Below, piece by piece: positions 26,935 through 60,271 of a DNA stretch of 64,000 bases (its first letter is position 1; each line of letters opens with the position of its first letter). A model generated the notes under the pieces. The model did no database searches. It saw only the letters and a list, made by a program, of their open reading frames with translations, and was not told where the DNA came from. Made by a program: the position numbers and the translations under genes. This stretch comes from Victivallales bacterium (lineage in GTDB: Bacteria > Verrucomicrobiota > Lentisphaeria > Victivallales > UBA1829): positions 66,190 through 130,189 of the forward strand of contig JAZNPK010000010.1 in assembly GCA_045589595.1 (NCBI GenBank), read 5' to 3'.

Positions 26935-26955
26935 CACACAAAGGAGCTTGAAATA

Positions 26956-30885: not shown

Positions 30886-30938
30886 ATTGAGTAACGCGCC
30901 CAGCGTTTGGCGGCAGGAGAAATCCTGCCGCTTTTTTG
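30874..30938 (+). repeat. Repeat family A, copy 2 (orphan gene tail plus terminator hairpin)
   Basis: AAGTTTTTCGGCATTGAGTAACGCGCCCAGCGTTTGGCGGCAGGAGAAATCCTGCCGCTTTTTT. It contains a perfect hairpin GCGGCAGGA/TCCTGCCGC followed by T6. Confidence 0.7.
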
Positions 30939-30957
30939 CGTTTTAAGAAAGATAAAC

Positions 30958-30987
30958 CATCATCTGCAGGCGCTTACAACTGCGGAA
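30958..30987. repeat. Repeat family B, copy 1 (30 bp) downstream of the radical-SAM pair
   Basis: CCATCATCTGCAGGCGCTTACAACTGCGGA compared with 33205-33234 gives 26/30 identical, in the same orientation. Confidence 0.65.
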
Positions 30988-31004
30988 AAGTAAATTAGCA
31001 AAAA

Positions 31005-32261: not shown

Positions 32262-33163
32262 CAGATGTACCTCAAATATGTTTTGAGCATATCAAACATG
32301 ATCCGGAGATTTCCCCGGAAAAGCAAGGTATATTCTGCCACAAAGAAATAGCCGCATTGCTCACACAATCCCGGGATCTCAATGCATCTGCCGCATGTGC
32401 TGATCTTGCCGTTCTCGATAACAACGCACTGATGACACGGTGTGGGGAAAGAATTATTGACAAGATAAGGCAATGCGCTTTTCAGATTGAAGATCGGAGA
32501 GCCTTTCTCAATCGCATCTCTGATCACAGATGCACATTGTTGTTTTTCATCCAGAGAAAGCATCAAATCCGCAGTATCCGGATATGGCGTATGAAAATTG
32601 AAGGAAACCGCCCGGATATTGCAGTCTGTTTCGGCTGTTTTTATGACATCCTGAACGGTTGATACGTTCAATTTGTTGATTGCCATATATAAAACAATAT
32701 TATCAGAAGCGGCACTTCTGATGTTTTTCATAATCGTGTCATAGGTTTCGCCTCTGATCAGATTATGTCTTTCCCGATCGCCATCAAGAGAGAGCAGAAT
32801 AAGATCGGCTTCCGGCAGATCAAGAGTAAAGGTTCCGTTGGTTACCACATTGACGATGAGAAAACCCATTTGCTTCGCTTCGATGACCAGGTCGCGCACA
32901 GATTTTTCGCCATCCCGCCACAGAAAAGTTTCTCCTCCGCAAAAGAAAAGGATGCGGCAGCCCATACTGTAAAGGGTCTGCATTTCATTGCGGATTTGAG
33001 AATAAGGATGTATGACAGCTGTAATGTTATTGACAGAGCAATGCTTACACTTCAAGTTGCATTTATCTGTAAGAATCACTGTCCCGAGAATCGGTTTTTT
33101 CTGCCGGAATAAAATCGTTTTTATTCCAAAAGCTGCAAAATATGTAAATGCAGAAAGTTTCAT
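32261..33163 (-). CDS. Radical SAM protein with a Cys-rich (SPASM/twitch-like) C-terminus
   Basis: ILTDKCNLKCKHC (CxxxCxxC). C-terminal PCHQCVVIENGKISTCGRCIEIPGLCEQCGY. The stop/start overlaps the HemN-like gene by 1 nt. Confidence 0.82.
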   Translation of the reverse strand: MKLSAFTYFAAFGIKTILFRQKKPILGTVILTDKCNLKCKHCSVNNITAVIHPYSQIRNEMQTLYSMGCRILFFCGGETFLWRDGEKSVRDLVIEAKQMGFLIVNVVTNGTFTLDLPEADLILLSLDGDRERHNLIRGETYDTIMKNIRSAASDNIVLYMAINKLNVSTVQDVIKTAETDCNIRAVSFNFHTPYPDTADLMLSLDEKQQCASVIRDAIEKGSPIFNLKSALPYLVNNSFPTPCHQCVVIENGKISTCGRCIEIPGLCEQCGYFFVAEYTLLFRGNLRIMFDMLKTYLRYI

Positions 33164-33204
33164 ATTTCAATACCGTTATAAATTAATCACTCACCGGTAA
33201 TATA

Positions 33205-33234
33205 CCATCTCCCGCAGGCGTTTACAACTGCGGA
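33205..33234. repeat. Repeat family B, copy 2 (30 bp) upstream of the radical-SAM pair; contains a promoter-like element on the minus strand
   Basis: CCATCTCCCGCAGGCGTTTACAACTGCGGA. The minus strand reads TTGTAA, 17 nt, TATATT, pointing into the radical-SAM operon. Confidence 0.6.
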
Positions 33235-33563
33235 TTACAAATTTTCGATAATTTTCTGTAAGTGTCGGGGATTGTGGTATTTTCAGTTTGTAGCAAACTT
33301 TTTGAGATTTTTTCAAGGTTCAAGTATGGTCATTTTTAGTGTATTTGACTCGACCCCCGACTATTGTTTTTGATGATTTTACGCTCAAAAGTATGATTTT
33401 TGAGAATTTTTCCACAGTTTTTTATAAAGGTCTTTGCAAAGGTCGGATGGGAAATTCTCTGTTTTTTATGGCACGAAACGGAGAATTTGGCTCTATTGCA
33501 CCGTGTGTTTCTGTAACTTTTTAATCTCTAAAATCTTACATATAAAGCAATACATAAAGGTCG

Positions 33564-33660
33564 CCGACCTTTACATAACAGAGAATTTTCGCAAGATTTA
33601 TGCAAAACACACCCGATTTTGAGAATTTACCGTTTGATGAAAGCTCTGCCGCAATGGGTT
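33564..33660. repeat. Repeat family C, copy 1 (~97 bp)
   Basis: CCGAC.TTTACA.AACAGAGAATTT.CGCAAGATTTATGCAAAACACACCCGATTTTGAGAA..TACCGTTTGATGAAAGCTCTGCCGCAATGGGTT is almost identical to 36226-36321. Confidence 0.78.
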
Positions 33661-33729
33661 TTCAAGTAAAAGAAATTAAGCGGCAAAGCCGCGCTGTAAA
33701 GGTAACACATCCTCCCGCCGGAGGCGGCA

Positions 33730-33950
33730 ACTTCACACGCGGAGCGGCTTCACAAGTGCAATGAAGCGACAGCGTAATGAAACGACTTCATCCGCCGTCG
33801 CTGAAGGCTATGGCGGGACAAGCAAGCGAGGCTTCCCGGAATTCGTGAAGATGTGAAGAAAACCTTTGGTTTTGAGTGAAGAGCGGCTGGCGCCGCGTGA
33901 AGAGAAGCCTTGCGGCTTCGTGTTTTTTGCCTTGTGATCAAGGCAAAAAA
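33730..33950. repeat. Hairpin-array element (family E), copy a, GTGAAGA variant
   Basis: A short motif (GTGAAGA four times, plus CTTCAC/ATGAAGC variants) alternates with unrelated perfect hairpins (AAAACC/GGTTTT, GCGGC/GCCGC, GAAGCC/GGCTTC). It ends in an A/T-clamped hairpin TTTTTTGCCTTG-TGAT-CAAGGCAAAAAA. Confidence 0.7.
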
Positions 33951-33951
33951 A

Positions 33952-34165
33952 TGGTGGAGGGTGTTTTAATTCTTCGGAATACTTCTCTCAAGCTCAAAAC
34001 GGTTGTCAACAATACAATCTTGTTGAACCGTTTCACTTCTTCGAAAAACATCTCCGAAAGCATAAAAATCAAAACAGAGAACAGTTTTTACCTTAAAGTA
34101 AATGTCTGCAAATTCCGATGAAATAAAATCCGCCCCGGAAAACGGTCGCATCGCAGACATTTATT
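33952..34165. repeat. Repeat family D, copy 2
   Basis: See 25950-26162. This copy directly follows hairpin array a. Confidence 0.7.
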
Positions 34166-34298
34166 ATTAGGCTCTGTTCCCCATTACAGTTGATAGACAG
34201 TAAAGATGTTGGATCATATTTTTTTACCATTAATGGTGATTGATCCTTTTTTGGAAACAGATCATTTCAAAAAACTTACCGATAAATCATATAATCGG

Positions 34299-35891
34299 TT
34301 ATTCCTGAATTTTTGTATATATCGAAAGGCATGACGAACCGGTAATAATCGTATTTCTGCAAATTTTTGCACTTGTCTGCAATGCCTGCAATCCCCTTTG
34401 GTTGGTGTGTACATGAAAATGCGGCGCACATGATGAGGAAATGTCCACACGCAAACGGTCTCCGGCAAGCAGTTTGAAAGCGTGGGGCGCAAAAATAAAA
34501 TTGACAATACGTTCAGTTCCCGGAGTATAATTTTTTTCCAGACGGCACAGCGAATCTATATCATCCCGCAAAGGAAGCGTTTTCCCATTGCGCTCAAAAC
34601 TGATCCTTGCATAAAAACAAGTATCTTCTGCGGTGGAACTGCAATGAAGTTCAAGTTCCATATGTCCCTCACAGATCAAATCATTTTCAAGCGGTTCGGA
34701 GAGAAATGAAATGATGTCATAACGGGAATTCGGAGGATCCTGCAGCTGCATTCCACCGAAATTATTGCATAGGCCGCCGGCAAAAAATGCCGGATCATAA
34801 GGATTACTTGTATAGGTGATCTTTCCCGGTGCCGATGATGCAGCAAGAGTCCGTCCCGAGGTCAGAAAAAACTGATTCCTCTGCGGGGCATTGGTCAATT
34901 CCGGCGTGGAGTGCCAACAGTTGTCCCATAAGCGGTAATAGACTGTTTTGCCTTTTTGAACAAAGGGCAAAACAGTGCCAAGCCGGAAATGATCGAACCA
35001 TACATACTTCAAATCAGGTACACATTTGTCAAGCACAGCATCTTGGAAATCCTGCATTTCAGCCGGGAGAACAGTGGGATTATATGCGTGATCAAACGGC
35101 GTAACCACAAGCGCACAATTTTTTTTACGCACCGGGGAAAGTTTTTTCCACATATCAAATATACCTTCGGTATAAATATCATACATCGAAGTTATCAGCA
35201 GAATCGGGATGTCGCATTTATTACAGGCATCCTGATAATCGCTGCCGCCTTCCGGAGTACTCCAGTAAGGATCGTCAGGATCCGGATGACTGAAACTTTC
35301 CTCAATGTAGGGAACATATTCATTGAAAATAGTTTGGGTTATACCGGCAAGAGGCATTGTCCGGAAAGTTGCTGCAGTAAAGTTCCTTTCGACAGGCTGA
35401 TTTTTTTTATGCATTTTCATTACCCAGCTGCCATGCAGACCGCTCTTAAAAAATCCATGCCGGAAACAGATGTTGTATCTGTTACTGTCTTGAACTGCCA
35501 GCAATGCAGCTTTCACATCCGGCGGATTTGTATTCAGATAAGAAAGATGCACTGAAGCAGTATAGCTGCCTCCGAAAAGATAAATTTCTCCATTATAAAA
35601 AGTTTGCTGCCTGACCCATTCCAGCAGATCAAGACCATCGTTGCGTTCATTCAAATAAGCATTACATTCTCCTTCACTGCGTGCGGTTCCCCGGCACTGT
35701 TGGCTGACCACCGCATATCCATGAGTATTTTCCTGCCGCAGCTGTTCAAAGTCGATTTGTTCTGACTGATAAGGACTTCTTGAAATAATCACCGGAAAAG
35801 AACCGCTTTTTTCCGGGAGCTGGACGATGGTATAAAGTTTTATTCCGTCACGCATGGGGACAAGATATTCAAGAACAGTGTTGGCTGCCAT
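34299..35891 (-). CDS. CocE/NonD-family (S15 X-Pro dipeptidyl-peptidase-like) hydrolase
   Basis: N-terminal VPMRDGIKLYTIVQLPE...PVIISRSPY pattern, a GGSY nucleophile-elbow-like motif (LFGGSYTAS), and a ~530-aa length with a C-terminal beta-sandwich region. Confidence 0.78.
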   Translation of the reverse strand: MAANTVLEYLVPMRDGIKLYTIVQLPEKSGSFPVIISRSPYQSEQIDFEQLRQENTHGYAVVSQQCRGTARSEGECNAYLNERNDGLDLLEWVRQQTFYNGEIYLFGGSYTASVHLSYLNTNPPDVKAALLAVQDSNRYNICFRHGFFKSGLHGSWVMKMHKKNQPVERNFTAATFRTMPLAGITQTIFNEYVPYIEESFSHPDPDDPYWSTPEGGSDYQDACNKCDIPILLITSMYDIYTEGIFDMWKKLSPVRKKNCALVVTPFDHAYNPTVLPAEMQDFQDAVLDKCVPDLKYVWFDHFRLGTVLPFVQKGKTVYYRLWDNCWHSTPELTNAPQRNQFFLTSGRTLAASSAPGKITYTSNPYDPAFFAGGLCNNFGGMQLQDPPNSRYDIISFLSEPLENDLICEGHMELELHCSSTAEDTCFYARISFERNGKTLPLRDDIDSLCRLEKNYTPGTERIVNFIFAPHAFKLLAGDRLRVDISSSCAPHFHVHTNQRGLQALQTSAKICRNTIITGSSCLSIYTKIQE

Positions 35892-36225
35892 AAGGGGATT
35901 TTCCTTTTAGATACGTTTTGTTAATGTCCCAAATTTTGTGATGGGACGGGTTATTTGACAAAAGTGCATCTGACCTTTATTTTTTAGTGACCAAACAAAA
36001 AAATAAAAGGCAGCATCAGATACGCAGTAAAACTACTATGAAAAAGCCGATTTGTCAAGCGGAAAATGAAATTTTTGGGGGACGAATTGGTAAAAAAGTG
36101 GCAGATTCTTATAAAAAGAAGGCTTTCGCCGATATTTTGAAGATGAACTTGCAGTTAACTCAAGAGGTTTTGATGTACTGTATTTTTAACTAACGCTTAA
36201 CAAAAGAACTCCGCATAAATGACTG

Positions 36226-36321
36226 CCGACATTTACAAACAGAGAATTTCCGCAAGATTTATGCAAAACACACCCGATTTTGAGAAAATACCGTTTGATG
36301 AAAGCTCTGCCGCAATGGGTT
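36226..36321. repeat. Repeat family C, copy 2, abutting the stop codon of the four-helix-bundle gene
   Basis: See 33564-33660. Its last bases overlap the TAA (36322..36320 on the minus strand). Confidence 0.78.
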
Positions 36322-36680
36322 ATTTAAGATTCTGATTCGTGGTGTTGATTGAGGCGATCAGAGTTATTCTGATTTCCCGGCAGAGAGTTTCCAACCGATC
36401 ATATTCTGCAGAAGAGAGGATATTTGTTTTTCCCAATAGCAGCAGCCAGTAGCTTGTTTCATTGGCTTCTTTCAAGGCAATTTGCAGTTTTGAAACAAAA
36501 TCAGCTTTCCCGTGAGCATATTGCGCTTCGTGGATGTTGGCTCCGATACTTGTTCCGGCTCTGCCGATTTGATTGCAGATGATCGTTTCTCTCTGTTCTT
36601 TCAGATATTTTACAAGATTCAATAATTTCAACTGCAAATGCAATTGAAAGATCGACAAGTTTGTTTGACGATTTTTCCAT
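36320..36680 (-). pseudogene. Four-helix-bundle protein (23S rRNA IVS protein / DGR Avd family), apparently frameshifted
   Basis: The ATG at 36680 gives MEKSSNKLVDLSIAFAVEIIE... in one frame. A second frame gives ...LVKYLKEQRETIICNQIGRAGTSIGANIHEAQYAHGKADFVSKLQIALKEANETSYWLLLL... to the stop at 36320. The frames must be joined near 36610-36625 to give a normal family member. Confidence 0.7.
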
Positions 36681-36799
36681 GACAGATTTTTCCTTTCCAC
36701 TGAATAATGTAGCATTGGTAAGGAATATTTGCAAACACAGCTCTCATTTTTCATTTTTTCATCATCCGTCGCACGAAGTGCTATGGATGACAGGTCATA

Positions 36800-37063
36800 C
36801 GGAGCGTGAGCGGAGTGCTTCATATCGGAATGAAATGAAGATGCTTCATATTGTGGAGTGAAACGAAACAATGCTTCATCTGAAAAGGCGTTTTTATGAA
36901 GCACGTTGTGTCTTGCACGCCTCTGGCGTGTCAAGCACACAAAAGTATGAAGCACATTTTGTGCTTGCGAGCTTTGCTCGTCAAGCATCAAAATATATGA
37001 AGCGCACCTTCGGTGCATGAAGCGAAGCCTTAGGCTTCATTCACCATTTTTGCTCAGCAAAAA
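36800..37063. repeat. Hairpin-array element (family E), copy b, between tRNA-Val and the four-helix-bundle gene
   Basis: ATGAAGC occurs 4 times forward (36896, 36947, 36997, 37017) and GCTTCAT 4 times inverted, with TCAAGCA twice. Unique hairpins are interleaved (ACGCC/GGCGT, AGCAC/GTGCT, CGAGC/GCTCG, GCACC-TTCG-GGTGC, GAAGCC/GGCTTC). The terminal hairpin CCATTTTTGC-TCA-GCAAAAATGG overlaps the tRNA CCA end. Confidence 0.72.
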
Positions 37064-37140
37064 TGGTGGGCGTTGAGGGACTCGAACCCCCGACATTCAC
37101 GGTGTAAACGTGACGCTCTAACCAACTGAGCTAAACGCCC
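37064..37140 (-). tRNA. tRNA-Val (anticodon TAC), CCA encoded
   Basis: Hand-folded cloverleaf: GGGCGTT/AACGCCC acceptor, GCTC/GAGC D-stem, TCACG-TTTACAC-CGTGA anticodon arm, GGGGG-TTCGAGT-CCCTC T-arm, and ACCA tail. Confidence 0.95.
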
Positions 37141-37309
37141 GATCGTAAGAAAAAATGATCTTTTCGGTAAATTTCTTATAAGATACTCCATTTTTTTTAC
37201 TTTTCAAGTGGGAATTTGCGGAAAATGGTGTATATTATGTGATGATTCTATCAAAAATGAACATTTTTCCGGCACGCGTGCCGGTATCAAACAAGAAGGA
37301 TTGTAGAAG

Positions 37310-50478: not shown

Positions 50479-50508
50479 GATCCGGGATACCGCTTACGCT
50501 CCGTACAA

Positions 50509-50639
50509 GGCTGCGGGCGGGACCGTGGCAGACGCACGCGCGTCTGCCGAAAAAAACCAGGCACAGTTCAAGCGTGAACTGTGCCGTTTTTTTTTACGCC
50601 GCACCTCCCGGTGGCGGCGTTACGGTCCCGCCCGCAGCC
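50509..50639. terminator. Second branched (four-way-junction) element containing a bidirectional intrinsic terminator, 30 nt after the FKBP gene
   Basis: An 18-nt outer stem (50509-50526 / 50622-50639) encloses three hairpins. These are 50527-50548, 50560-50585 (preceded by A7, followed by T9) and 50596-50620. Confidence 0.5.
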
Positions 50640-50669
50640 AAAAAATGCTGTTTTTTTACAATTTCCGTA

Positions 50670-50698
50670 TTGACTTTACGCAGAACTTGAAGTAAAAT
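50670..50698 (+). promoter_or_regulatory. Sigma70-type promoter candidate for the HlyD/M50/CapA operon
   Basis: TTGACT (50670-50675), 17-nt spacer, TAAAAT (50693-50698). Confidence 0.4.
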
Positions 50699-50729
50699 AC
50701 AGGTGAATCATATTTAACTATTTAAAATA

Positions 50730-51563
50730 ATGAAAGAAGGTCAACTGATGAGAAAGAGTATGATCCCTCTGCTGGCGGCGGCGCTGTTCAGCGGTTCAGT
50801 TTATTTGTCGGCACAGAATGCGGAGAGTGGACTGGTCCCTTCCGCGGCGGTGCAGAAGAAGCAAGTTGTGAAAGTTGTGTTTTTCCCGTTCCGGGAAGCG
50901 ATCCTTGCATCCCGTATTGACGGCGTTGTGCTGGAAAACAATTTAAGGATCGGGCAGCGTTTCAAACAGGGCGAAGTCCTTGTCCGGCTGGATGATGTCC
51001 GGTTCCGTGTGGAACTGGAGCGTGTTCAGGCGTTGGAGAAGGAAAGTATTGCGTTGTGTGATTTTGCCAAAGAAACGCTGAAGGCGCAGGAAGATATGTT
51101 CAAACAGGCAATGATCAGTGAGATCGACTTCAAGAAAGCGAAGCTGGATGTGGAAACATCTGCCGCCCGTCTTCTGGCGATCCGCGCCAATCTGAAAGAA
51201 GCCCAGAACCAGTTGTCTTACTGCGTGATCTCGGCACCGATCGCAGGGCGTATCGAAGAAATCGCCACACGTTCCTTTGAAAACCTCCGGGCGGGGCAGC
51301 CTCTTGTGCGGATCATTGACGACAATCTGCTGAAAGCTGTGATGTTTGTGCCGGTCTCCCTGCTGGAACAGCTCAAGCCCGGAACGGATGTGGATCTTTT
51401 CTGCACCGATACGAAAAAAGCGATCAAGGGAAAAGTGTATGAAATCGCGCCCCGCGCCGATCACCGGAGCGGAACGATCGAGATCCATGCAGTTGTTGAC
51501 AACAGAGACGGCGGTATCACTGCCGGTATGACAGGAGAATTTTCTTATGCCGGGACCCGCTGA
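50730..51563 (+). CDS. HlyD/membrane-fusion-protein-family periplasmic adaptor
   Basis: Signal peptide (MRKSMIPLLAAALFSGSVYLSAQ). Lipoyl-like hairpin (GQRFKQGEVLVRLD ... ISAPIAGRIEE), a coiled-coil segment and a beta-barrel (GKVYEIAPRAD). Confidence 0.8.
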   Translation: MKEGQLMRKSMIPLLAAALFSGSVYLSAQNAESGLVPSAAVQKKQVVKVVFFPFREAILASRIDGVVLENNLRIGQRFKQGEVLVRLDDVRFRVELERVQALEKESIALCDFAKETLKAQEDMFKQAMISEIDFKKAKLDVETSAARLLAIRANLKEAQNQLSYCVISAPIAGRIEEIATRSFENLRAGQPLVRIIDDNLLKAVMFVPVSLLEQLKPGTDVDLFCTDTKKAIKGKVYEIAPRADHRSGTIEIHAVVDNRDGGITAGMTGEFSYAGTR

Positions 51564-52956
51564 TCAACTTCAGGAAATGGCTGCACGCCTCAAGGCGTTC
51601 GGCGTAATTATGCGTTTGGGACATGACATCTTCAACGCAAATGATTTTCAGACTGCCGCCGTCATGGCGGTGAACAATGCCCGTCCGGTGGTCGGATTCC
51701 GCAGTTCCACACTGTTGCGGATCCAGGACCGCAAAGCGGATGTGATCGCCCAGTATGCACAGCCGAATGTGAATGCGCACAGCCGTCAGGCGGTTCTTCA
51801 ACGCAACATTCTGGAAATGACGGGTCCGCTGGATGATATTACGGAAATTTCTTCTGCGGTCGCAAACCAGTACGGCGACGGCTCCGCGGTCCGCGAACTC
51901 TGTCCGGATGATGTGACGATCGTTCTCGTTCCGTTGAAACCGCCCCCGTTCCTGAAGAAACCTGCGTTCCAGTTGGTCTGGCTGCTTGAATTTGACGGCA
52001 AACCGCCTGCATATTCCATGACATCTGCAAAGCTGCTGGCATCCAGTTATTCGGAAGCGTTGTACTGTCAGCGGCTTGGTGGTTCCCGCGTCAGAAATTT
52101 CGGCAGACGGAAACTGATCAACTTCAAACGCATTTTCTGGATCCTTGTCCTTGCGGCTACGATCTATGTGATGTTCCAGCCGATCCCGGAAAAAGTCAAT
52201 GCCGAATTTGAATTGAAAGCACCGGAGATCACAACGGTATATGCCTGGTTTGACGGTCCGGTGGCAGACTGCCGCAGACCCGACGGACGCCTCTGGAAAG
52301 ATGGTGATCAGGTGAAAGCCGGAGATGTGATCGCACGCTACGAGACCAGTCAGCTGGAATACCGTCTGGCAGCCGCACAGGCGGCAGTCCGTGAAACCGA
52401 GGCGGAACTTCAGTTGAAACAGGATGCCTCTTTCACTGAGAAAGAAAAACTCGGCGAAGTGAAATTGCTGGAAGCCCGTCTTCAGTCTGCAAAAGTTGCC
52501 GTGGCAGAAGCCCAATGGTATCTGGATCATGCGGAAATGAAAGCGCCCTGCGCCGGTATCCTTCAGTTGGCAGACCAGCGTGCGGAAGCGTTGATCGGGA
52601 AAGCGGTCCGTACCGGTGATAAGATTTTTGATGTGCTTGGCGGCGAAGGTATGGATGTGAAGGTGCCGATCAATGAACGGGAATCCTCCATTCTGCTGCA
52701 GAATCCGGAGATCATCACGCTGTTTCTGCATACATCGCCCGACACCCCGATCCTGGCGAAAGTCCGCGAGATCAGCCCGTCACCGGAGTTGACCGAACAG
52801 CGTACCTACTGCTATAATCTGATCGCAGAACTGCCTCCGACACAGACCCGTGACCTGAAATACGGTATGCGCGGTATTGCCAAAGTGGAAGGTTCGGAAG
52901 TCTCCATCGGTTACTTCCTGTTCAAGAGTGTGATCCTTTACTTCCGGGGGCTGTAA
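51547..52956 (+). CDS. Bitopic protein: unassigned ~190-aa cytoplasmic domain, one TM helix, HlyD-like periplasmic domain
   Basis: AGGAG RBS. The start lies 17 nt inside the upstream gene. TM helix IFWILVLAATIYVMF. HlyD-like segments (GDQVKAGDVIARYE, coiled coil, MKAPCAGIL). Confidence 0.75.
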   Translation: MPGPADQLQEMAARLKAFGVIMRLGHDIFNANDFQTAAVMAVNNARPVVGFRSSTLLRIQDRKADVIAQYAQPNVNAHSRQAVLQRNILEMTGPLDDITEISSAVANQYGDGSAVRELCPDDVTIVLVPLKPPPFLKKPAFQLVWLLEFDGKPPAYSMTSAKLLASSYSEALYCQRLGGSRVRNFGRRKLINFKRIFWILVLAATIYVMFQPIPEKVNAEFELKAPEITTVYAWFDGPVADCRRPDGRLWKDGDQVKAGDVIARYETSQLEYRLAAAQAAVRETEAELQLKQDASFTEKEKLGEVKLLEARLQSAKVAVAEAQWYLDHAEMKAPCAGILQLADQRAEALIGKAVRTGDKIFDVLGGEGMDVKVPINERESSILLQNPEIITLFLHTSPDTPILAKVREISPSPELTEQRTYCYNLIAELPPTQTRDLKYGMRGIAKVEGSEVSIGYFLFKSVILYFRGL

Positions 52957-52959
52957 ATC

Positions 52960-55122
52960 ATGGCGGAAGAACAGAAAATCCAGGCGGGCGAAAACGCATC
53001 GGCATCTGCCGCGTCCAGCCCTGCCGGGCAGCCGCCCCAGATGCCGAAGCCGGAACTGCAGACCGGTATGCTGCGTCAGGACATTGAATTGATCCGTCCG
53101 GGAGAGCATGGGGACTACGCCATGTTGTTTGACCCGGCGGCGGATGCCTATTACAAGATCAGTGAGCGTTCACTTGATATTATTTCCCGTATCGACCGCA
53201 GCTATCCGCTGATGGAATTTCTGGAAATGCTGAACAACTGCGGGATGCAGGTGACGAAAGATGAAATGCTGCAGTTGATCTCATTTCTGCATCAGAGCAA
53301 TCTTATTGCGCCGGAATACGGTCAGATGGAGCGCAAGTACGCCCAATATGTGAAGATGCGTGAAGATACGATGTTCCTGCGTTTTTCAGCGGCGTATCTG
53401 TTTTTCAAACTGCCGCCGATCCGGCCGGAAAAATTTTACCGCTGGATCCGTCCGGCGGTTTCCTGGATGGCGTCCAAAGCCTTTGTGCTGATGCTTCTGA
53501 TCCCTGCGGTGATCGGCTATGTGCTGATGATGCGGAACTTTTCGGAAGTCCGGTCCACGTTCCTCGACTCTCTGTCGTGGGCGGGATTGGCGAAATACTT
53601 TGTGGCGATCCTTGTAATGAAAGTGGTCCACGAAGCGGCGCACTCGTTGTCTGCGATCCACTTCAACTGCCGGGTACGCGGGGTAGGGCTCGGGTTCATG
53701 GTTTTTTATCCCCGTCTGTTTACGGATACCACCGATTCGTGGCGTCTGCCGCGTCGTCAACGGCTGTTGATCGATGCTGCCGGTATCATCATTGAGCTGC
53801 TGGTTGGCGGTATTGCGGCATTGATCTGGGTATATTCGCCGCCCGGAGCGTGGAAATCCACCATGTTCTATCTGTTTGCGGTAAGTACCATCAGTACATT
53901 GTTCGTCAACGGCAACCCGTGTATCCGTTACGATGGTTACTACATTTTGTGTGACGTGATGAACATTGAGAACCTGATGACCCGTTCTTCGGAATATGTG
54001 AAACAGTTCTGGCGTTGGCATTTTCTGCGTCTGGGCACGAGTCCGAAAGAGGAGCGCGGTGGTTTTCTTCTGTTCTTCGGTATTATTTCCTTTATTTACC
54101 GTATTTTCCTTTACACGTCCATCATCATCATTATCTACAACCAGTTTGTGAAAGCGGTCGCTCTGGTGCTGCTGGTGCTGGAATTGTACAGTATCTTTAT
54201 TTATCCGATGTATAAAGAGATCAAAACGATCCGGATGCTTTCCAAAAAATCGGCAAACAAAGCGCGTCTGTATCTGTTTCTGATTTTGGCGGCGGTGATC
54301 TCGGCGGTTCTGTTTGTGCCGTTGTCCTGGAATCTGCATCTCGACGGTGTGGTGGTCCCGGCGTCACAGGTGCAGCTTGCGGTCCAGGAGGGCGGTTATC
54401 TGAAAGCTGCGCTGCCGGACCGACCGACGGAAGTGAAACCCGGCGACAATATTTTTGGCTTGTCCTCGCCGTTCCTTGATTTCGGTATTGAACGGAATCT
54501 CCGCGATGCGGAATATACGAAACAGCTTCAGGATCTGCAGTTGTCCGGCAAAGAAACGCTGGGTGCTGCGCAGGTGAGTCAGCAGAAACTTGTTACGGTC
54601 GATTCCGTATTGAAGGAACTGAACCGCCGGAAAGGTGAATTGTCCGCAGTCTCGCCCATCGACGGTATTTTCATTCCGAAACTGCCGGGACATGTTTCCG
54701 CCGGTATGTTCCTGCCGAAGGGCGCATTGATCGGGGAGATCATTTCCCGCGAAAAGATGATTTATGCTTATGCGGACGACCGCGACATTCCCAAGCTGAA
54801 GATCGGGGAACGGGTACAGATCCGCGCCCACGACAGTCTGGAAGATCATTTCGGCACGATTACTGCCATCAATCCGGTTCCGTCCAAACTGAAAAATTCG
54901 CCATTGCTTCAGCAGTTCGGCGGACCGATCCCGGTTTACATCGATGAAAAGCAGGTCGGGGAATACACTTCAGTTCTGCCGTTGTACCGGGTGGAAATCA
55001 ACTTTGATCTGCCGCCGCCGATCCAGGTCGGGCGGACATTGAAATTGGAAGTCATCCATACGGAGCGGCTTTACGATACACTGAAACAATATGCAATCTC
55101 TATTATCCGCAAGGAGTTCTGA
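52960..55122 (+). CDS. Fusion protein: PqqD/RRE-like N-domain, M50 (site-2-protease) membrane metalloprotease, HlyD-like C-domain
   Basis: HEAAH zinc motif inside a TM region and NGNPCIRYDG (NxxPxxxxDG S2P signature). The N-terminal 60-120 region has a PqqD-like pattern. The C-terminal ~270 aa has a lipoyl-like hairpin, a short coiled coil and a beta-barrel. Confidence 0.85.
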   Translation: MAEEQKIQAGENASASAASSPAGQPPQMPKPELQTGMLRQDIELIRPGEHGDYAMLFDPAADAYYKISERSLDIISRIDRSYPLMEFLEMLNNCGMQVTKDEMLQLISFLHQSNLIAPEYGQMERKYAQYVKMREDTMFLRFSAAYLFFKLPPIRPEKFYRWIRPAVSWMASKAFVLMLLIPAVIGYVLMMRNFSEVRSTFLDSLSWAGLAKYFVAILVMKVVHEAAHSLSAIHFNCRVRGVGLGFMVFYPRLFTDTTDSWRLPRRQRLLIDAAGIIIELLVGGIAALIWVYSPPGAWKSTMFYLFAVSTISTLFVNGNPCIRYDGYYILCDVMNIENLMTRSSEYVKQFWRWHFLRLGTSPKEERGGFLLFFGIISFIYRIFLYTSIIIIIYNQFVKAVALVLLVLELYSIFIYPMYKEIKTIRMLSKKSANKARLYLFLILAAVISAVLFVPLSWNLHLDGVVVPASQVQLAVQEGGYLKAALPDRPTEVKPGDNIFGLSSPFLDFGIERNLRDAEYTKQLQDLQLSGKETLGAAQVSQQKLVTVDSVLKELNRRKGELSAVSPIDGIFIPKLPGHVSAGMFLPKGALIGEIISREKMIYAYADDRDIPKLKIGERVQIRAHDSLEDHFGTITAINPVPSKLKNSPLLQQFGGPIPVYIDEKQVGEYTSVLPLYRVEINFDLPPPIQVGRTLKLEVIHTERLYDTLKQYAISIIRKEF

Positions 55123-55124
55123 GC

Positions 55125-56345
55125 ATGACAAAGTTTGAAAAACTGACAACATTCCGTCCGTCGGCAGGGAAGACATTCTCTGTTGCGATCACAGGGGACT
55201 TCTGTCCCTACAGCGCCATCAAAGTTGAAGATGTGGCATCGATCTGTTCCGACATCGCCCCCACACTGGCGGCGGCAGATTACCGGATCATGCAGTTTGA
55301 AACTGTACTGACCAAAGGTGATCCGGAGCCGATCCACAAATGCGGTCCGAACATCAAGTCCGATGTGGCATCCTCTCTTGAATTTCTCAAGACGCTGAAC
55401 ATTGATCTGACGCTGCTGGCGAACAATCACACCGGCGACTTCGGACCTGATGCCGCAATAGAAACCCGGTCCATTCTCCGGGATGCCGGTTATGCCACGG
55501 TCGGTATGGGAGTTGATCCGGAAGATGCGGCAAAACCCCATTGTTTTGAACTGGGCGGCAAAAAGATCGCGGTGCTGAACTTCTGCGAAAATGAATTCGG
55601 TATCGTCCGGGAAAAAGATTATGCCGGTTCAAATCCGCTGCAGCCCTATGTCAATATGGAACAGATCCGCGAAGCGAAGAAAACGGCGGATTTTGTGATC
55701 GTGACGGTTCACGGCGGACATGAATTTTTCCCCTATCCCTCCCGCCGGATGATCGATACCTACCGTGCGTTTGTTGATGCCGGAGCGAATCTTGTGTTCA
55801 ACTGCCACACCCACTGTGTGCTTGGCACGGAATATTACAAAGGTGTTCCCATTTTCTATTCTCCGGGCAACTTCTTCTTCCCGGAAAAATGCAACGAACT
55901 GCCGGATATGTGGAGCGGCGGCGTACTGCCCACATTCCATTTTGATGAGCAGGGCGTTTGTGCCATGGGACTCCAGCCCTACACCTTCACGTTTGAAAAA
56001 ATCGCCCCGCTGTCTCCGGAAAAAGAAGCGATCTTCTTCAAGGATTACAACGAACTTTCCGAAGTGATCCAGCAGCCGGAAGAACTGAAACGGCTCTTCA
56101 ATATCTGGTCCGTTTACGCAACCGACAGACTTGCGGCGTACATCTTTGAAGGTTATTTCCCCATGGGATTCCCGCCCGACAACAAAGTCAAAGGCTGGTT
56201 GCTGTTCCGCAATCTCTTCAACTGCGAAACCCATGACGATGCCACGCGGACCTATCTGCGGCTGGTGGAGCAGGGGCGTATTGAAGAACTCAAGCCGCTT
56301 TTTGATCAGGTGATCAAACCCCTGCAGACTCCTGCCTGGCTCTGA
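55125..56345 (+). CDS. CapA/PgsA-family metallophosphoesterase-like protein
   Basis: LLANNHTGDFG, VTVHGGHE and NCHTHC motifs of the PGA_cap family. It starts 2 nt after the M50 fusion gene. Confidence 0.83.
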   Translation: MTKFEKLTTFRPSAGKTFSVAITGDFCPYSAIKVEDVASICSDIAPTLAAADYRIMQFETVLTKGDPEPIHKCGPNIKSDVASSLEFLKTLNIDLTLLANNHTGDFGPDAAIETRSILRDAGYATVGMGVDPEDAAKPHCFELGGKKIAVLNFCENEFGIVREKDYAGSNPLQPYVNMEQIREAKKTADFVIVTVHGGHEFFPYPSRRMIDTYRAFVDAGANLVFNCHTHCVLGTEYYKGVPIFYSPGNFFFPEKCNELPDMWSGGVLPTFHFDEQGVCAMGLQPYTFTFEKIAPLSPEKEAIFFKDYNELSEVIQQPEELKRLFNIWSVYATDRLAAYIFEGYFPMGFPPDNKVKGWLLFRNLFNCETHDDATRTYLRLVEQGRIEELKPLFDQVIKPLQTPAWL

Positions 56346-56381: not shown

Positions 56382-56446
56382 AAATTTTCTGCTTTATGCT
56401 ATATTATATGGATCATAGCAAACTGTAATTTGTAAGGAAGCAGAAA

Positions 56447-58588
56447 ATGAACACCATCAGGGAAAACGCGATCGCCGCGGTGGCTGCCATGCCGCCGGTA
56501 CTGGAAGAAGATATCCGTCCCGTTGAAGACATTACCGGAGCGTTCGGCTCGGATGTCTTCAGCATCGGGACGATGCAGACCGTGCTTCCCCGGCAAGTCT
56601 TCGAGACCCTGATGAAGACCATCCGTGACGGTGCGCCCCTTGATCCTGCCATCGCAGATGCTGTGGCGTCCGCCATGAAAGACTGGGCTGTTTCCAAAGG
56701 CGCCACCCATTATACCCACTGGTTTCAGCCCATGACCGGGGCAACGGCGGAAAAACATGAGTCGTTTCTGGAGCCGGACGGCAACGGTGAAGCGATCCTG
56801 AAATTTTCCGGCAAGAACCTGATCGTCGGCGAATCGGATGCCTCCAGTTTTCCCTCCGGCGGATTGCGTTCCACCTTTGAGGCGCGCGGTTATACTGCGT
56901 GGGACCCCACAAGCCCCGCCTTCCTCCGCCGCAGCCGCAACTGTGTGACGCTTTGTATTCCCACTGCGTTCTGCAGTTACACCGGGGAAACGCTCGATAA
57001 AAAGACGCCGCTGCTCCGTTCCATTCAGGCGTTGTCCGGGGCGGTCACGAAACTGATGCGGGCATTTCAGGAAGAAAAAGAAGATGCCCGGTTCAGTGTC
57101 AGTCTGGGCGCGGAACAGGAATATTTTCTTATTGACCGCCATTTTTATTATGCCCGTCCGGACCTGATCCAGTGCGGGCGGACGCTGTTCGGTGCTGCAC
57201 CCCCGAAGCATCAGCAGCTGGATGACCATTACTACGGCGCGATCCGCCCCCGTGTCCTTGCATTCATGGCGGATGTGGATCAACAGCTCTGGCGTCTGGG
57301 GATCCCCGCAAAGACCCGTCACAACGAGGCGGCTCCGGCACAGTTTGAAATCGCGCCCCTGTTTGAAGAACTGAACCTGGCGGTTGACCACAACATGGTC
57401 ATGATGGAAGTGCTGCGTCTGACGGCTGAAAAACACGGCTTTGTCTGTCTGCTTCATGAAAAACCCTTTGCCGGTGTCAACGGTTCCGGTAAACATAACA
57501 ACTGGTCCATTGCCTATGGCAAGAAAAATCTGCTCAATCCGGGTGATGATCCGCATCAGAACGCTCTGTTCCTGACGACGCTCTGTGCTGTGATCCGGGC
57601 TGTTGACCGCCACGCGGATCTGTTGCGTGTGGCGGTTGCAGGACCGGGGAACGATCACCGTCTCGGTGCGTGCGAAGCGCCGCCTGCCATCACATCCATT
57701 TTTCTTGGCGAACAGTTGACGGATGTGATCGAACAGATCGAAGCGGGTACCCGCACATCCAGAGGTAAAGCCGGAGTTTTGAGCGTGGGCGTGGATCGTC
57801 TGCCGCCGCTGCCCAAAGATGCCACGGACCGGAACAGAACCAGTCCTTTTGCTTTCACCGGAAATAAATTTGAGTTCCGCGCGCCGGGAGCAAGTCAGTC
57901 CTGCGCAGGTGTGAATATGATCCTCAACACCATCGCCGCTGAATCCATTGAGGATATTGCGGAAAAGATCGAAGCATTTTCACCGGATGAGGATTTCCAT
58001 ACCCAGCTTCAGGCGCTGTTGCGGAAGATCATCAAAAAACACAAACGGATCATTTTCAACGGCAACGGCTATGATCAGGCGTGGATCGATGAGGCGGAAC
58101 GGCGCGGATTGCCTAATCTCAAAAACACTCCGGCGGCGTTGAAGCGTTTTATCGCGCCGGAAAATATTGCCATCTTTGAGCGTTTCGGCGTGCTTTCCGA
58201 GGCGGAAGTTCTTTCGCATCACGAGATCATGATGGAGGAATACGACCGGAAGATCCGGATCGAAGCGGAACTTTCTCTGCTGCTGTCCCGTACTGTGATC
58301 ATGCCCGCCGCATCCAAAGAACTCAAGGAACTGTTCCAGACCATCCGGGATGCCGGTGACAGTGTCGCGCTCCGGTCTTTGCAGAAGACTGCCAACTCCA
58401 TTGCGGTCCTGCTGGATGCCATCGACACCAAGAATGATATTCTGGAAGAGCTGATCGCGCAGGAACGCTCCGAAGATATGGTGGATGCCATGCGGTCTCT
58501 GCGGGAGGAAGTGGATCAACTGGAACGGATCCTTGCCGATGCCACGTGGCCGCTCCCCAAATACCGCGAACTGCTGTTCCTCTACTGA
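56447..58588 (+). CDS. glnN: Glutamine synthetase type III
   Basis: 713-aa length and an N-terminal [16 protein letters not shown] region characteristic of GSIII. The central GS catalytic core shows [10 protein letters not shown]. Confidence 0.9.
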
Positions 58589-58768
58589 CCGGCAACTTTC
58601 CGACGGAAAACATGACGCTGCGTCCGTGGCGTCATTGCCGGAAAAGCAGACTTTCTTTTATATCATATTTTTTGCAAAAAAATGTGTCATTCTCTTGAAA
58701 ATCTGTATATTCTGTACTAAATTACAGATAACAGTTTTATTCAATTCTAACATGAGAGAATATCAGGT

Positions 58769-60271
58769 ATGGAAAACACAACCAACTACAGTATCCGCAG
58801 CCTTGCAGCGGAAATCGGCAAATCCCCCAAAGATTTTACCAAGAGCGACATTATCCGGTACATCTGCGATAATGAGATCCGCCATATCAATTTCCAATAT
58901 CCCGCCGGTGACGGCAGACTGAAAACCCTGAACTTTGTCATCAATGATCTGGAATATCTGGAAGAGATCCTTTCCTGCGGCGAACGCGTGGACGGCTCCA
59001 GTCTGTTCCCCTTCATCGAAGCAAACAACAGTGACCTTTATGTGGTTCCCCGTTTCAGAACTGCCTACATGGATCCCTTCTGCGAACTGCCCACCATCAA
59101 CTTCCTCTGCGCGTTCTTCAACAAGGACGGCAATCCGCTGGAAAGTTCTCCGGAATACACGCTCCACAAAGCATGTGAAGCATTCCGCAAATCCACCGGC
59201 AGAGAATTTCAGGCAATGGGCGAACTGGAATATTATGTGATCGCGCCCGATGAAAATATGTATCAGGCAGTTGACCAGAAAGGTTATCACGAATCTGCAC
59301 CCTATGCAAAATTCGGCGAATTCCGTCAGCTCTGCATGAACTTTATCGCCCGCACCGGCGGACAGATCAAATACGGCCACTCCGAAGTCGGCAATTTTAC
59401 CCTTGACGGCAAAATCTACGAACAGAACGAAATCGAATTTCTCCCCGTCGATGCGGAAGAAGCCGCCGAACAGCTCACCATTGCAAAATGGATTATCCGC
59501 AACCTCGCATACCGCGAAGGTCTGGATGTGACCTTTGCCCCGAAAATCACGGTCGGCAAAGCCGGATCCGGACTCCATGTCCATTTCCGCGTGATGAAAG
59601 ACGGCTTGAACCAGATGCTCAAGGACGGCGTCCTTTCCGATGATGCAAAACGCGCCATCGCCGGTCTGATGATGCTTGCTCCCTCCCTGACCGCATTCGG
59701 CAACACCAATCCCACATCCTACTTCCGCCTCGTTCCGCATCAGGAAGCCCCCACCAACGTTTGCTGGGGCGACCGCAACCGGTCCGTGCTGGTCCGTGTT
59801 CCTCTGGGCTGGACGAGCAAAAAAGATCTCTGCTCCCAGGCGAATCCGGGCGAACCTTCCGCCCATTACGATACGACCCAGAAGCAGACAGTTGAAATGC
59901 GTTCTCCGGACGGCTCCGCCAATGTGTATCTGCTCATTGCCGGTTTGGCTGTTGCATGCCGTTACGGGTTTGAATGTGAAAATGCGCTGGATGTTGCCGC
60001 AAAAACTTATGTGAATGTGAATATTCACAAAGACGAAAACCGCAGCATCCTTGAAACCCTGAGCGTCCTGCCCGACAGCTGTGCGGCATCTGCCGATTGC
60101 CTTGCGGAACAGCGTGCCATCTATGAAGCGGAAGGCGTGTTCTCCCCCGCCATGCTGGATGGTATCATTGCCGGTCTCAAAGCGTTCAATGACCGTACTC
60201 TGCGCAGCGACATCAACAACGATCAGAAAAAGATCCTTGCTCTGGTGGAAACGTATTTCCACTGCGGCTGA
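58769..60271 (+). CDS. Glutamine synthetase-family protein (~500 aa GlnA-like)
   Basis: GS beta-grasp N-domain pattern (RHINFQYPAGDGRLK) and a catalytic-domain HSEVG motif (KYGHSEVGNF), plus SGLHVH. Confidence 0.8.
   Translation: MENTTNYSIRSLAAEIGKSPKDFTKSDIIRYICDNEIRHINFQYPAGDGRLKTLNFVINDLEYLEEILSCGERVDGSSLFPFIEANNSDLYVVPRFRTAYMDPFCELPTINFLCAFFNKDGNPLESSPEYTLHKACEAFRKSTGREFQAMGELEYYVIAPDENMYQAVDQKGYHESAPYAKFGEFRQLCMNFIARTGGQIKYGHSEVGNFTLDGKIYEQNEIEFLPVDAEEAAEQLTIAKWIIRNLAYREGLDVTFAPKITVGKAGSGLHVHFRVMKDGLNQMLKDGVLSDDAKRAIAGLMMLAPSLTAFGNTNPTSYFRLVPHQEAPTNVCWGDRNRSVLVRVPLGWTSKKDLCSQANPGEPSAHYDTTQKQTVEMRSPDGSANVYLLIAGLAVACRYGFECENALDVAAKTYVNVNIHKDENRSILETLSVLPDSCAASADCLAEQRAIYEAEGVFSPAMLDGIIAGLKAFNDRTLRSDINNDQKKILALVETYFHCG

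Follow-up and report, generated by a model that had tools for sequence, protein, structure and literature searches.

In type I secretion and tripartite efflux, an inner-membrane pump is combined with an adaptor of the HlyD or membrane-fusion (MFP) type and a TolC-type outer-membrane channel (OEP). The Lap system (LapA, LapB-C-E, LapD and LapG) serves the retention and release of a giant adhesin, with LapG as a periplasmic cysteine protease that cuts at a di-alanine site and LapD, of HAMP-GGDEF-EAL architecture, as a c-di-GMP receptor. Proteases of the M50 family classically cut transmembrane segments. For the daptides, a site-2 protease with an RRE domain fused to its N-terminus has been described to remove a leader with a conserved N-terminal motif (bioRxiv 10.1101/2023.03.08.531785). 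YydH, encoded in B. subtilis yydFGHIJ, is a membrane protease of the M50 family with a presumed role in the processing of a ribosomal peptide (PMC7026026). A paper assigning a function or partner system to the LEPR-XLL domain (NF012209, 'LEPR-8K'), which is represented by a model of 24 positions, was not found.

The locus studied here lies in a 64-kb stretch of DNA (the window) and comprises four open reading frames on the + strand: g1 (50730-51563, 277 aa), g2 (51547-52956, 469 aa), g3 (52960-55122, 720 aa) and g4 (55125-56345, 406 aa). Recomputation of the reading frames and of their junctions (g1 and g2 overlap by 17 nt, and gaps of 3 and 2 nt follow) gave the same values as an earlier reading made from the letters alone (the sequence-only reading). 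A strong hairpin resembling a terminator, with 11 pairs and a T-run on each strand (50560-50585, strand unspecified), ends the upstream FKBP gene and sets it apart from the g1-g4 operon. The promoter-like element proposed earlier, TTGACT-17-TAAAAT (50670-50698, + strand), is present about 30 nt upstream of g1 as a consensus match only. Since such matches are no commoner than in shuffles (7 found against 5.5 expected), a promoter for g1-g4 at this position is only plausible.

The product of g1 is a short, soluble periplasmic adaptor of the MFP/HlyD type. It matches the RND_mfp model TIGR01730 (2e-46, above the model cutoff) and HlyD_3 (1.3e-20), and hydropathy reveals a single signal-like hydrophobic segment at residues 10-28, in line with its previous description as a signal-peptide membrane-fusion protein. 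Its homology to the g1 proteins of Azospirillum and Pseudohongiella is at 1e-22. An alternative start of g1 lies at 50748.

In g2 a cytoplasmic domain (residues 1-188, 51547-52110, + strand) is followed by a single transmembrane segment assigned by hydropathy (about residues 190-208, 52114-52182, + strand) and a periplasmic HlyD-like adaptor domain (52183-52956, + strand), the latter recognized by HlyD_3 (7.8e-6, residues 332-440) and TIGR01730 (7.9e-16, residues 249-451). This arrangement had been seen before, with the cytoplasmic domain of about 190 residues left unassigned. Domain-profile searches gave no sequence-level GAF match for this domain. When its AF2 model (pLDDT 86) was compared with the PDB by Foldseek, 160 matches with E<=1e-3 were obtained, and all 50 listed matches are GAF-containing structures (e.g. 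3cit, 4g3v and 3p01). Judged from the model, the domain has a GAF fold, and in a distant g2 homologue (P0232) Pfam recognizes both GAF and HlyD domains. A regulatory role is probable for the GAF protein.

The third protein, g3, unites an RRE-like domain, a protease and an adaptor-like domain. Its N-terminal cytoplasmic domain (residues 36-120, 53065-53319, + strand) is predicted to fold into three strands followed by three helices (AF2 model, pLDDT 85). The top 11 Foldseek matches in the PDB are all PqqD/RRE structures, among them PqqD (5sxy), CteB (5why), TbiB1 (5v1u), TfuB1 (6jx3) and TigE, with TM-scores of 0.5-0.67 and modest E-values (7e-3 to 6e-2). The Pfam PqqD family matches two of 14 g3 homologues at 2e-4 and does not match the g3 of the window itself. 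The membrane core of the M50/site-2-protease type (residues 140-455, 53377-54324, + strand), supported also by NF041824 and by hydrophobic segments, scores 33.1 bits with Peptidase_M50 (PF02163, 4.5e-8) against a cutoff of 27.2. A search for Pfam domains found no PDZ domain in g3. The zinc motifs HEAAH (residues 224-228, 53629-53643, + strand) and NGNPCIRYDG (residues 317-326, 53908-53937, + strand) are invariant in the 14 homologues, as are Leu38, Arg39, Asp41, Phe57, Asp58 and Tyr64 of the RRE domain, both in orphan copies and in copies linked to a giant gene (see below). After the last transmembrane segment follows a periplasmic adaptor-like (MFP) domain (residues 456-720, 54325-55122, + strand). 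It matches TIGR01730 weakly (1e-4), a profile of g3 homologues finds MacA/MexA (4dk1, 2e-3) and EmrA (8zar, 4e-3) in the PDB, and proteobacterial homologues have precomputed Pfam matches to barrel-sandwich MFP families. The sequence-only reading had proposed an RRE-like domain, an M50 core with these two motifs and adaptor-type domains in three proteins, and all of these assignments hold.

The protease and RRE motifs of g3 are invariant across phyla, which argues that both domains are functional. This invariance does not fit ordinary efflux adaptors serving a pump encoded elsewhere, with the protease fusion as an incidental feature. Such a role would agree with the match of g1 to the RND_mfp model and with the NCBI name of the homologues, 'efflux RND transporter periplasmic adaptor subunit', but in about 160 loci the conserved neighbours include no RND, MFS or MacB-type pump, and we consider this explanation extremely improbable.

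MpaP, the RRE-dependent intramembrane leader peptidase of the daptides, resembles g3 in that its M50/site-2-protease core is preceded by a fused RRE domain, and residues 55-422 of g3, spanning the RRE and protease region, align to positions 19-373 of the 379-position MpaP model NF041824 (3e-42). With 145 bits against a cutoff of 300, g3 is therefore not an MpaP equivalog. It differs from MpaP by an extra transmembrane segment and the adaptor domain of about 265 residues, and its loci lack daptide genes and short precursors, the likely substrates being giant proteins. YydH, from which the KEGG/JGI name 'putative peptide zinc metalloprotease protein' of the g3 homologues derives, is linked to them by annotation name; unlike g3 it has no adaptor domain or OEP partner and belongs to a Gram-positive host.

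The genes g1, g2 and g3 form a conserved triad, with g1 beside g2-g3 in 60 of 63 Lentisphaerota loci. Among those with 8 kb or more of flanking sequence to either side, g1 occurs in 31/31 and g2 in 28/31; in comparable well-flanked metagenome loci the counts are 19/23 and 21/23. The g3 architecture occurs in Lentisphaerota, Alpha- and Gammaproteobacteria (4179 cluster representatives at E<=1e-30), and the three proteins of the window match those of the Azospirillum triad at 7e-22, 4e-18 and 2e-68, respectively. We found no curated family or paper that covers this architecture or describes a characterized member, in agreement with the sequence-only reading. On the basis of sequence conservation, the triad is a widespread, uncharacterized three-protein envelope module. 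It shares adaptor-type domains, present in all three proteins, with type I secretion and tripartite efflux systems. However, it has three different adaptors instead of one, of which one carries a protease and another a GAF domain, and its conserved core includes no pump; in the window only the adaptors are found.

The fourth gene encodes a CapA/PGA_cap-family protein (PGA_cap, 4.8e-48) without a transmembrane segment. This family assignment agrees with the earlier one, but the inclusion of g4 in the system does not stand: none of 84 related Lentisphaerota loci has CapA next to the triad, and only the window has it. The closest relatives show the order FKBP-g1-g2-g3-glnN, and in the two closest syntenic ones (L084 and L085) CapA is absent and g3 is directly followed by GSIII. 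From this gene order, g4 is a lineage-specific insertion between g3 and glnN, outside the conserved module, and CapA is a co-transcribed passenger of the window triad. The closest and only solved relative of g4 is the lasso-peptide epimerase MslH (8gq9, 2.8e-13). This relationship could suggest a RiPP-type machine, akin to the peptide-processing or export machine envisaged earlier: the RRE domain would bind a small precursor, the M50 protease would cut it, the adaptors would export the product, and CapA would be a tailoring enzyme. The RRE fold, the similarity to the daptide protease and the JGI annotation that names the family after YydH, a RiPP-associated M50 protease, would be compatible with that role. 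Yet g4 scores only 54 bits with the MslH model against a cutoff of 700, there is no short conserved ORF next to the triad in the window, RiPP enzymes are absent from the neighbourhood conserved among 160 related loci, and the conserved partner is a giant protein. A RiPP-type machine is thus very unlikely.

Most genomes with the module encode a TolC-like OEP and a giant protein beside it. Of 23 well-flanked metagenome loci, 18 have the OEP and 22 an ORF of 900 aa or longer. The gene order is OEP-g1-g2-g3-giant or giant-OEP-g1-g2-g3, and Pseudohongiella, Azospirillum picis and A. canadense are examples with OEP and giant beside the triad. The giant partner is adhesin-like, with DUF4347 plus cadherin, Ig and PMP repeats, and the likely substrates of the triad are between 1,000 and over 8,000 residues long. 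Starting no more than a few residues from the initial Met, these proteins carry a motif of the LEPR-XLL type, LE(P/D)RxLF(D/E)AA, followed by a low-complexity linker of about 70-100 residues rich in Ala, Gln, Glu and Pro, and then by DUF4347. The motif was found in 48 ORFs, always N-terminal and always beside the triad. The N-termini of the Azospirillum giants match positions 5-24 of the NCBIfam LEPR-XLL model below its cutoff (16.0 and 15.5 bits against 17), whereas LEDRVLF(E/D)AA, the Lentisphaerota form of the motif, follows this pattern but does not match the model. Such neighbours suggest that the triad processes giant surface proteins, not the small peptides considered at first. Across the family, the OEP and the giant LEPR/DUF4347 protein, and no small precursor peptide, are the partners that recur. 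In some loci a type I ABC/HlyD pair is present too.

The 64-kb window contains no OEP, type I ABC, DUF4347 protein, LEPR-type motif or giant gene, consistent with the earlier remark that no pump, TolC-type channel or precursor gene is adjacent. For this reason the window triad is an orphan copy and would act on partners from other parts of the genome. About 14 of the 31 well-flanked Lentisphaerota loci are orphans too. That roughly half of the Lentisphaerota triads have no substrate gene nearby might suggest regulated intramembrane proteolysis as by RseP, in which the M50 protease cuts a membrane-anchored regulator upon a signal received through the GAF protein or the periplasmic adaptors; the protease core with both zinc motifs and the sensor-type domain of g2 would suit this function. 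On the other hand, the conserved neighbours of the triad include no sigma, anti-sigma or other regulator gene, no PDZ domain was detected, and the tight linkage to OEP and giant secreted proteins is unexpected for a pure signalling protease. We regard such a signalling device as quite unlikely.

The explanation that we find best, and to which we would give an even chance, is that the triad works as an intramembrane peptidase which is guided by its RRE domain, is docked through three adaptor domains to a TolC channel, and recognizes and cuts the leader at the N-terminus of giant adhesins. In g3, the cytoplasmic RRE domain would bind the leader in the way RRE domains bind RiPP leaders, and the M50 active site, on the inner side of the membrane, would cut it, as MpaP does with daptide leaders. 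The adaptor domains could hold the protease against the channel where the giant protein exits, and the process is likely gated by a cytoplasmic input through the GAF domain of g2. That the leader is not hydrophobic counts against its cleavage by an M50 protease.

The same parts could instead serve regulated shedding, not maturation during export. An adhesin exported by a type I system would then remain leashed by its leader to the RRE-M50 protein, with the linker of roughly 80 residues enclosed by the adaptor tube and the TolC-like channel, until cleavage under GAF control releases it, similar to the Lap system. As in Lap, a giant repetitive adhesin with an N-terminal site for processing would leave through a TolC-like channel, and a dedicated protease would be accompanied by an inner-membrane protein whose cytoplasmic domain senses small molecules. 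The low-complexity linker would agree with this, the Ala-rich stretch after the motif resembles the LapG site, and the giants of Lentisphaerota have in common an amphipathic C-terminus, a possible type I secretion signal. The likeness to Lap would be functional only, however: none of the proteins shows homology to LapD or LapG (C93), the triad having an intramembrane metalloprotease with an RRE domain and a sensor of GAF fold. Moreover, a cut directly after the motif would leave DUF4347 on the adhesin, and the polypeptide would have to span the inner membrane at rest. Retention and release is a rather unlikely purpose, and leader processing during export is preferred.

For leader processing, energy is probably supplied by the type I ABC pump present in some loci. 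A type I ABC was detected in only 4 of the 23 metagenome loci; in the others it may lie on the far side of the giant gene or at another place in the genome. The protease may also take the place of the pump, as the sequence-only reading suggested. In several Lentisphaerota loci a complete type I set precedes the triad in the order ABC-HlyD-OEP-giant-g1-g2-g3, and in Victivallis-type loci an HlyB-type ABC (4e-177) and a type I HlyD (6e-89) lie in one gene string with the triad.

The operon under study comprises four genes on the plus strand, g1 (50730-51563, 277 aa), g2 (51547-52956, 469 aa), g3 (52960-55122, 720 aa) and g4 (55125-56345, 406 aa). The ORFs and the tight junctions described in the sequence-only reading were confirmed: g1 and g2 overlap by 17 nt, and gaps of 3 nt and 2 nt separate g2 from g3 and g3 from g4. 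At 50560-50585 a terminator-like hairpin of 11 pairs with T-runs marks the end of the upstream FKBP gene; it is followed by a promoter-like consensus match, TTGACT-17-TAAAAT (50670-50698), and these signals fit a separate transcription unit for g1-g4. Because consensus matches were no more common in the sequence than in shuffles (7 observed versus 5.5), the operon promoter is plausible but not demonstrated. A search for precursor ORFs at 50479-50729 gave only chance ORFs lying over the terminator and promoter, none of which is conserved. The strongest promoter-like match of the region (TTGACC-18-TATAAT, 11/12, with extended TG) is located inside the 3' end of g2 at 52789-52818, some 140 nt before g3 begins, where it may have arisen by chance or may serve g3-g4 as an internal promoter. 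Long antisense ORFs on the minus strand at 51517-52731 (404 aa), 53386-54339 (317 aa) and 56399-57658 (419 aa), which overlap g2, g3 and the glnN gene, respectively, are probably spurious. Downstream, a tandem pair of glutamine synthetase genes occupies 56447-60271; the first encodes a type III enzyme of 713 aa (GSIII) and the second is a 500-aa ORF read as a glutamine synthetase from its sequence.

The first two proteins of the operon match adaptor profiles of the HlyD/MFP family. In g1 an N-terminal signal-like hydrophobic stretch was found by hydropathy, and the protein passes the RND-type adaptor model TIGR01730 (2e-46, 158 bits against a cutoff of 94.9). In g2 a single TM segment is followed by a C-terminal HlyD-type domain, which scores 27.0 bits with Pfam HlyD_3 (cutoff 22.2) and 57.9 bits with TIGR01730, the latter under the cutoff. 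The N-terminal domain of g2, about 190 residues long, gave no meaningful match in Pfam, NCBIfam or PDB profile searches, so its identity was resolved by fold search only. An AlphaFold2 model (pLDDT 86) retrieved 160 PDB matches at E<=1e-3 with Foldseek, and all 50 of the matches listed were GAF domains or GAF-containing sensors, which indicates that the modelled domain has a GAF fold. The most distant sequence homologue of g2, P0232, carries tandem Pfam GAF domains in front of its adaptor domain. At three related loci (L163, L145 and L155) the g2 homologues are 589-608 aa, some 150 residues longer. The size of the sensor part differs from one family member to another.

The third protein, g3, combines three parts. 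Its central region matches Pfam Peptidase_M50 (PF02163) at 33.1 bits, above the gathering score of 27.2. It contains HEAAH at residues 224-228, in a segment that is hydrophobic by hydropathy, and NGNPCIRYDG at residues 317-326, which fits NxxPxxxxDG. Both motifs are invariant across 14 homologues with identities down to 48%. By these sequence features g3 belongs to the M50/site-2 protease (S2P) family and is a predicted protease. The N-terminal domain was modelled from residues 30-138 (pLDDT 85) as three strands followed by three helices. The best 11 Foldseek matches in the PDB were all RRE or PqqD domains, with probabilities of 0.99-1.00 and TM-scores of 0.5-0.67 at E-values of just 7e-3 to 6e-2; they include PqqD (5sxy), CteB (5why), TbiB1 (5v1u/5v1v), TfuB1 (6jx3) and TigE (8vpo). 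The model thus points to a PqqD/RRE fold. Sequence support for this domain is weak: Pfam PqqD (PF05402) matches two of the 14 homologues (best 2e-4) and not g3 of the window, and a TfuB1 profile match had an E-value of 0.49. The C-terminal 265 residues come after the last TM segment and match TIGR01730 weakly (1e-4, 21 bits). A profile of g3 homologues retrieved MacA/MexA (4dk1) at 2e-3 and EmrA (8zar) at 4e-3 from the PDB, and precomputed barrel-sandwich MFP families are assigned to the proteobacterial homologues.

Among characterised proteins, MpaP, the RRE-dependent intramembrane leader peptidase of daptide biosynthesis (bioRxiv 10.1101/2023.03.08.531785), is closest to the RRE-M50 part, and residues 55-422 of g3 match the corresponding NCBIfam model at 3e-42. 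A fusion of RRE and S2P domains has a characterised precedent and is not new in g3. Equivalence with the daptide protease (NF041824) was rejected, both on score (145 bits against a cutoff of 300) and because daptide enzymes and short precursor ORFs were found neither in the window nor at the related loci. A role of the g1-g2-g3 triad in the maturation of small peptides of the RiPP type, to which this kinship might point, fits poorly with the conserved neighbourhood described below.

The arrangement of the triad is widely conserved. At 79 loci from Lentisphaerota genomes g3 is preceded nearly everywhere by g1 and g2; where at least 3 kb of upstream sequence was available these were found at 60/63 and 58/63 loci, and at loci flanked on either side by 8 kb or more at 31/31 and 28/31, respectively. 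ORFs at related loci were called mechanically and neighbour statistics were taken from all ORFs with phmmer, as greedy longest-ORF calling at some loci let long antisense ORFs displace real genes (cluster 3 and the rows with no g3). Close homologues of g3 are all from Lentisphaerota, which places the source organism in this group (Victivallales), but the family as a whole reaches far beyond the phylum. With the g3-homologue profile, 13,707 cluster representatives were found at E<=1e-3 and 4,179 at E<=1e-30, and nearly all of the best 150 matches are about 700 residues long and span the RRE, protease and adaptor parts. Its named members belong to Thiomargarita, Marithioploca, Skermanella, Azospirillum, Pseudohongiella and Magnetococcales. 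Automatic annotation calls these proteins 'HlyD family efflux transporter periplasmic adaptor subunit', 'peptidase M50', 'site-2 protease family protein' or 'putative peptide zinc metalloprotease protein'. NCBIfam holds no model dedicated to the family, and literature searches retrieved no paper describing the M50/HlyD/RRE fusion; one 'M50' match in Chem Rev refers to a residue, M507.

The sequence-only reading listed g4 as the fourth gene of the operon; membership of g4 in the system did not survive comparison of the loci. The protein belongs to the CapA family, matching Pfam PGA_cap (PF09587) at 4.8e-48 with 164.3 bits against a gathering score of 27, and has no TM segments. Only one relative has a solved structure, the lasso-peptide epimerase MslH (8gq9, 2.8e-13), and against the MslH model g4 scores 54 bits, far under the cutoff of 700. 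The gene was seen in the window only; none of the related loci has it, the two closest syntenic ones included. These two relatives lie on long contigs, their g3 proteins are 82% and 79% identical, and both show the gene order FKBP-g1-g2-g3-GSIII, so that the GSIII gene is a conserved downstream neighbour of g3. These flanking genes also border the operon in the window, where g4 sits between g3 and glnN; g4 is therefore a lineage-specific addition. Although g4 is probably co-transcribed with g1-g3, CapA was rejected as a component of the system for lack of conserved co-occurrence.

Two kinds of genes do accompany the triad in other genomes: a TolC-like outer-membrane channel (OEP) and a giant adhesin-like protein. 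In Pseudohongiella sp. O18 the order is giant (>3,578 aa)-OEP-g1-g2-g3, and in Azospirillum picis and A. canadense g2-g3 is accompanied by a divergent g1-OEP pair and then by a giant DUF4347 protein. Among 80 metagenome loci collected with a proteobacterial alignment, OEP-g1-g2-g3-giant and giant-OEP-g1-g2-g3 are the usual orders. Considering only the 23 of these flanked on either side by 8 kb or more, an OEP gene is present at 18 and an ORF of at least 900 aa at 22, although some of these ORFs may be antisense artefacts of GC-rich contigs; DUF4347 was detectable at nine and an N-terminal motif visible at ten. The giants resemble adhesins: DUF4347, at about residues 100-265, precedes cadherin, Big_9, Big_12, YDG/MBG or PMP repeats. 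At many Lentisphaerota loci the order is ABC transporter (HlyB-type, 4e-177)-type I HlyD (6e-89)-OEP-giant-g1-g2-g3, and L040, L025 and L120 each have the HlyB-type ABC, the HlyD-type adaptor and the TolC-type OEP. A type I ABC transporter was found at 11/31 well-flanked Lentisphaerota loci and at 4/23 well-flanked metagenome loci. That the three proteins are ordinary efflux adaptors, as one of the automatic names implies, fits poorly with this neighbourhood. The window itself contains no ABC, RND or MFS pump gene in its 64 kb, and no type I ABC, type I HlyD or OEP gene that would indicate type I secretion.

At the 31 well-flanked Lentisphaerota loci DUF4347 or the motif was detected at 14 and N-terminally truncated giant homologues at three more, while about 14 are orphan triads like the window copy, which has no channel or giant gene nearby. 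The giant-linked g3 copies range from 57% to 34% identity to g3 of the window and so cover the whole divergence range of g3, which suggests that linkage to a giant is the ancestral condition and that the orphan copies derive from it. Orphan and giant-linked copies do not differ in the RRE residues or in the zinc motifs, all of which are invariant. The window copy, an orphan triad whose CapA gene is an unrelated passenger, is therefore probably functional and would act on partners encoded elsewhere. Adjacency of a giant gene alone does not make a partner, as follows from Thiomargarita, where the neighbouring giant was rejected as a Sec-signal RHS/YD protein without the motif.

All giant partners with a visible start carry an N-terminal tag, in the best-defined cases 2-15 residues past the Met. 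Its Lentisphaerota form is L-E-(D/E)-R-(V/I)-L-F-(E/D)-A-A-A-A-A-E-I and that of the proteobacterial set A-L-E-(P/S)-R-x-(M/L)-F-D-(G/A)-A. A search of ORF starts with a pattern in which L, E and R were fixed gave 48 occurrences, against about one expected by chance according to a rough estimate, and all 48 are in a large ORF adjoining a triad. Positions that the pattern did not require were conserved as well, with F at +6 in 47/48, D/E at +7 in 48/48 and Ala at +9 in 44/48. The Azospirillum N-termini score 16.0 and 15.5 bits with the 24-position NCBIfam model LEPR-XLL (NF012209; cutoff 17), whereas the Lentisphaerota N-termini do not match this model, though they share the motif pattern. The tag occurs in no frame of the window. 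RTX repeats were not detected in the giants. Four Lentisphaerota giants (L025, L032, L040 and L001) share an amphipathic C-terminus of approximately F-(K/R)-x-D-(F/L)-E-K-L-L-(D/E)-E-(L/V), and proteobacterial giants end in similar acidic helices; this C-terminus may be a type I secretion signal.

From homology and gene context we propose the following mechanism. The RRE domain of g3 would bind the LE(P/D)RxLF leader of the giant protein, which would be cut at the M50 site. The three adaptor-type domains of g1, g2 and g3 would couple this cutting to the TolC-like channel, and the GAF domain of g2 would supply a cytoplasmic input. The analysis itself establishes the folds, the homology, the conservation and the gene linkage; binding and cleavage of the leader, the link to export, the regulation and an action in trans are inferred. 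A more far-reaching reading, offered with a confidence clearly short of even, is that the triad and the TolC-like channel form an unrecognised envelope-spanning machine for giant LEPR-leader adhesins, with an RRE-guided intramembrane protease as its inner-membrane part in place of a pump. In this reading cleavage could either gate or finish secretion, or it could sever a leash upon a GAF-sensed signal, by which the adhesin is shed. Regulated shedding, in which the adhesin is first held by a Lap-like leash and then released, is a close rival to leader removal during export; it uses the same parts, and the present data do not separate the two. The resemblance to LapD/LapG is functional only: neither a LapG-type C93 nor a LapD-type HAMP-GGDEF-EAL match to Pfam or NCBIfam was found in g1-g4. 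Pure signalling through intramembrane proteolysis fits poorly with the conserved neighbourhood.

The adaptor, M50, RRE, GAF and TolC partner are each of a known kind. What is new is that an RRE-S2P peptidase is fused to an adaptor domain, that it is obligatorily accompanied by a TolC-type channel and by two further adaptors, of which one is GAF-linked, and that it is linked to giant LEPR/DUF4347 proteins. There is a substantial chance that the system represents a distinct mechanism. Few bacterial proteins are larger than the giant repetitive adhesins, and to our knowledge the control of their export and release is known for few systems, such as Lap. The analysis defines a conserved partner set for a very large unnamed family (the 4,179 representatives at E<=1e-30) that is spread over three or more major lineages, and this set provides a testable hypothesis for the unexplained LEPR-XLL N-terminal tag. 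If the proposal is true, RRE-guided leader recognition reaches past small natural-product peptides, this would be the first RiPP-style leader recognition on proteins thousands of residues long, and TolC-type channels gain a protease-based inner-membrane partner. Culturable hosts of the module include Azospirillum, Pseudohongiella and Victivallis vadensis DSM 14823. The last has at least three g3 paralogues (L016, L019 and L052), each with its own motif-bearing giant, which suggests one module per adhesin.

Some further features were observed. In a MAG labelled Planctomycetota (L003, L004 and L009) a solo g3 homologue of 841 aa, with a long low-complexity N-terminal extension, occurs without g1 and g2; directly after it lies a giant called at >8,700 aa that starts with an LEDRVLF motif. 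In the window, the stretch at 24000-37200 has a low GC content (0.42-0.46 versus about 0.52 elsewhere) and may be a horizontally acquired island, for which no link to the g1-g4 operon was found. It contains an FGE-sulfatase-domain protein (27950-29473), two tandem radical SAM genes on the minus strand (31005-33163), the smaller with a Cys-rich C-terminus, an S15 X-Pro dipeptidyl-peptidase (34299-35891), a 23S rRNA IVS-type protein (36320-37018) and several further ORFs without Pfam match, and it ends at a tRNA-Val gene on the minus strand (37064-37140). Adjoining one Victivallales triad (L001/L002), a minus-strand gene string at 12081-19408 encodes two PqqD-domain proteins, a ScmC-family protein, an NTP_transf_5 protein, HemolysinCabind and AIDA proteins and a Wzt-type ABC, and looks like a separate peptide-modification or export cluster.
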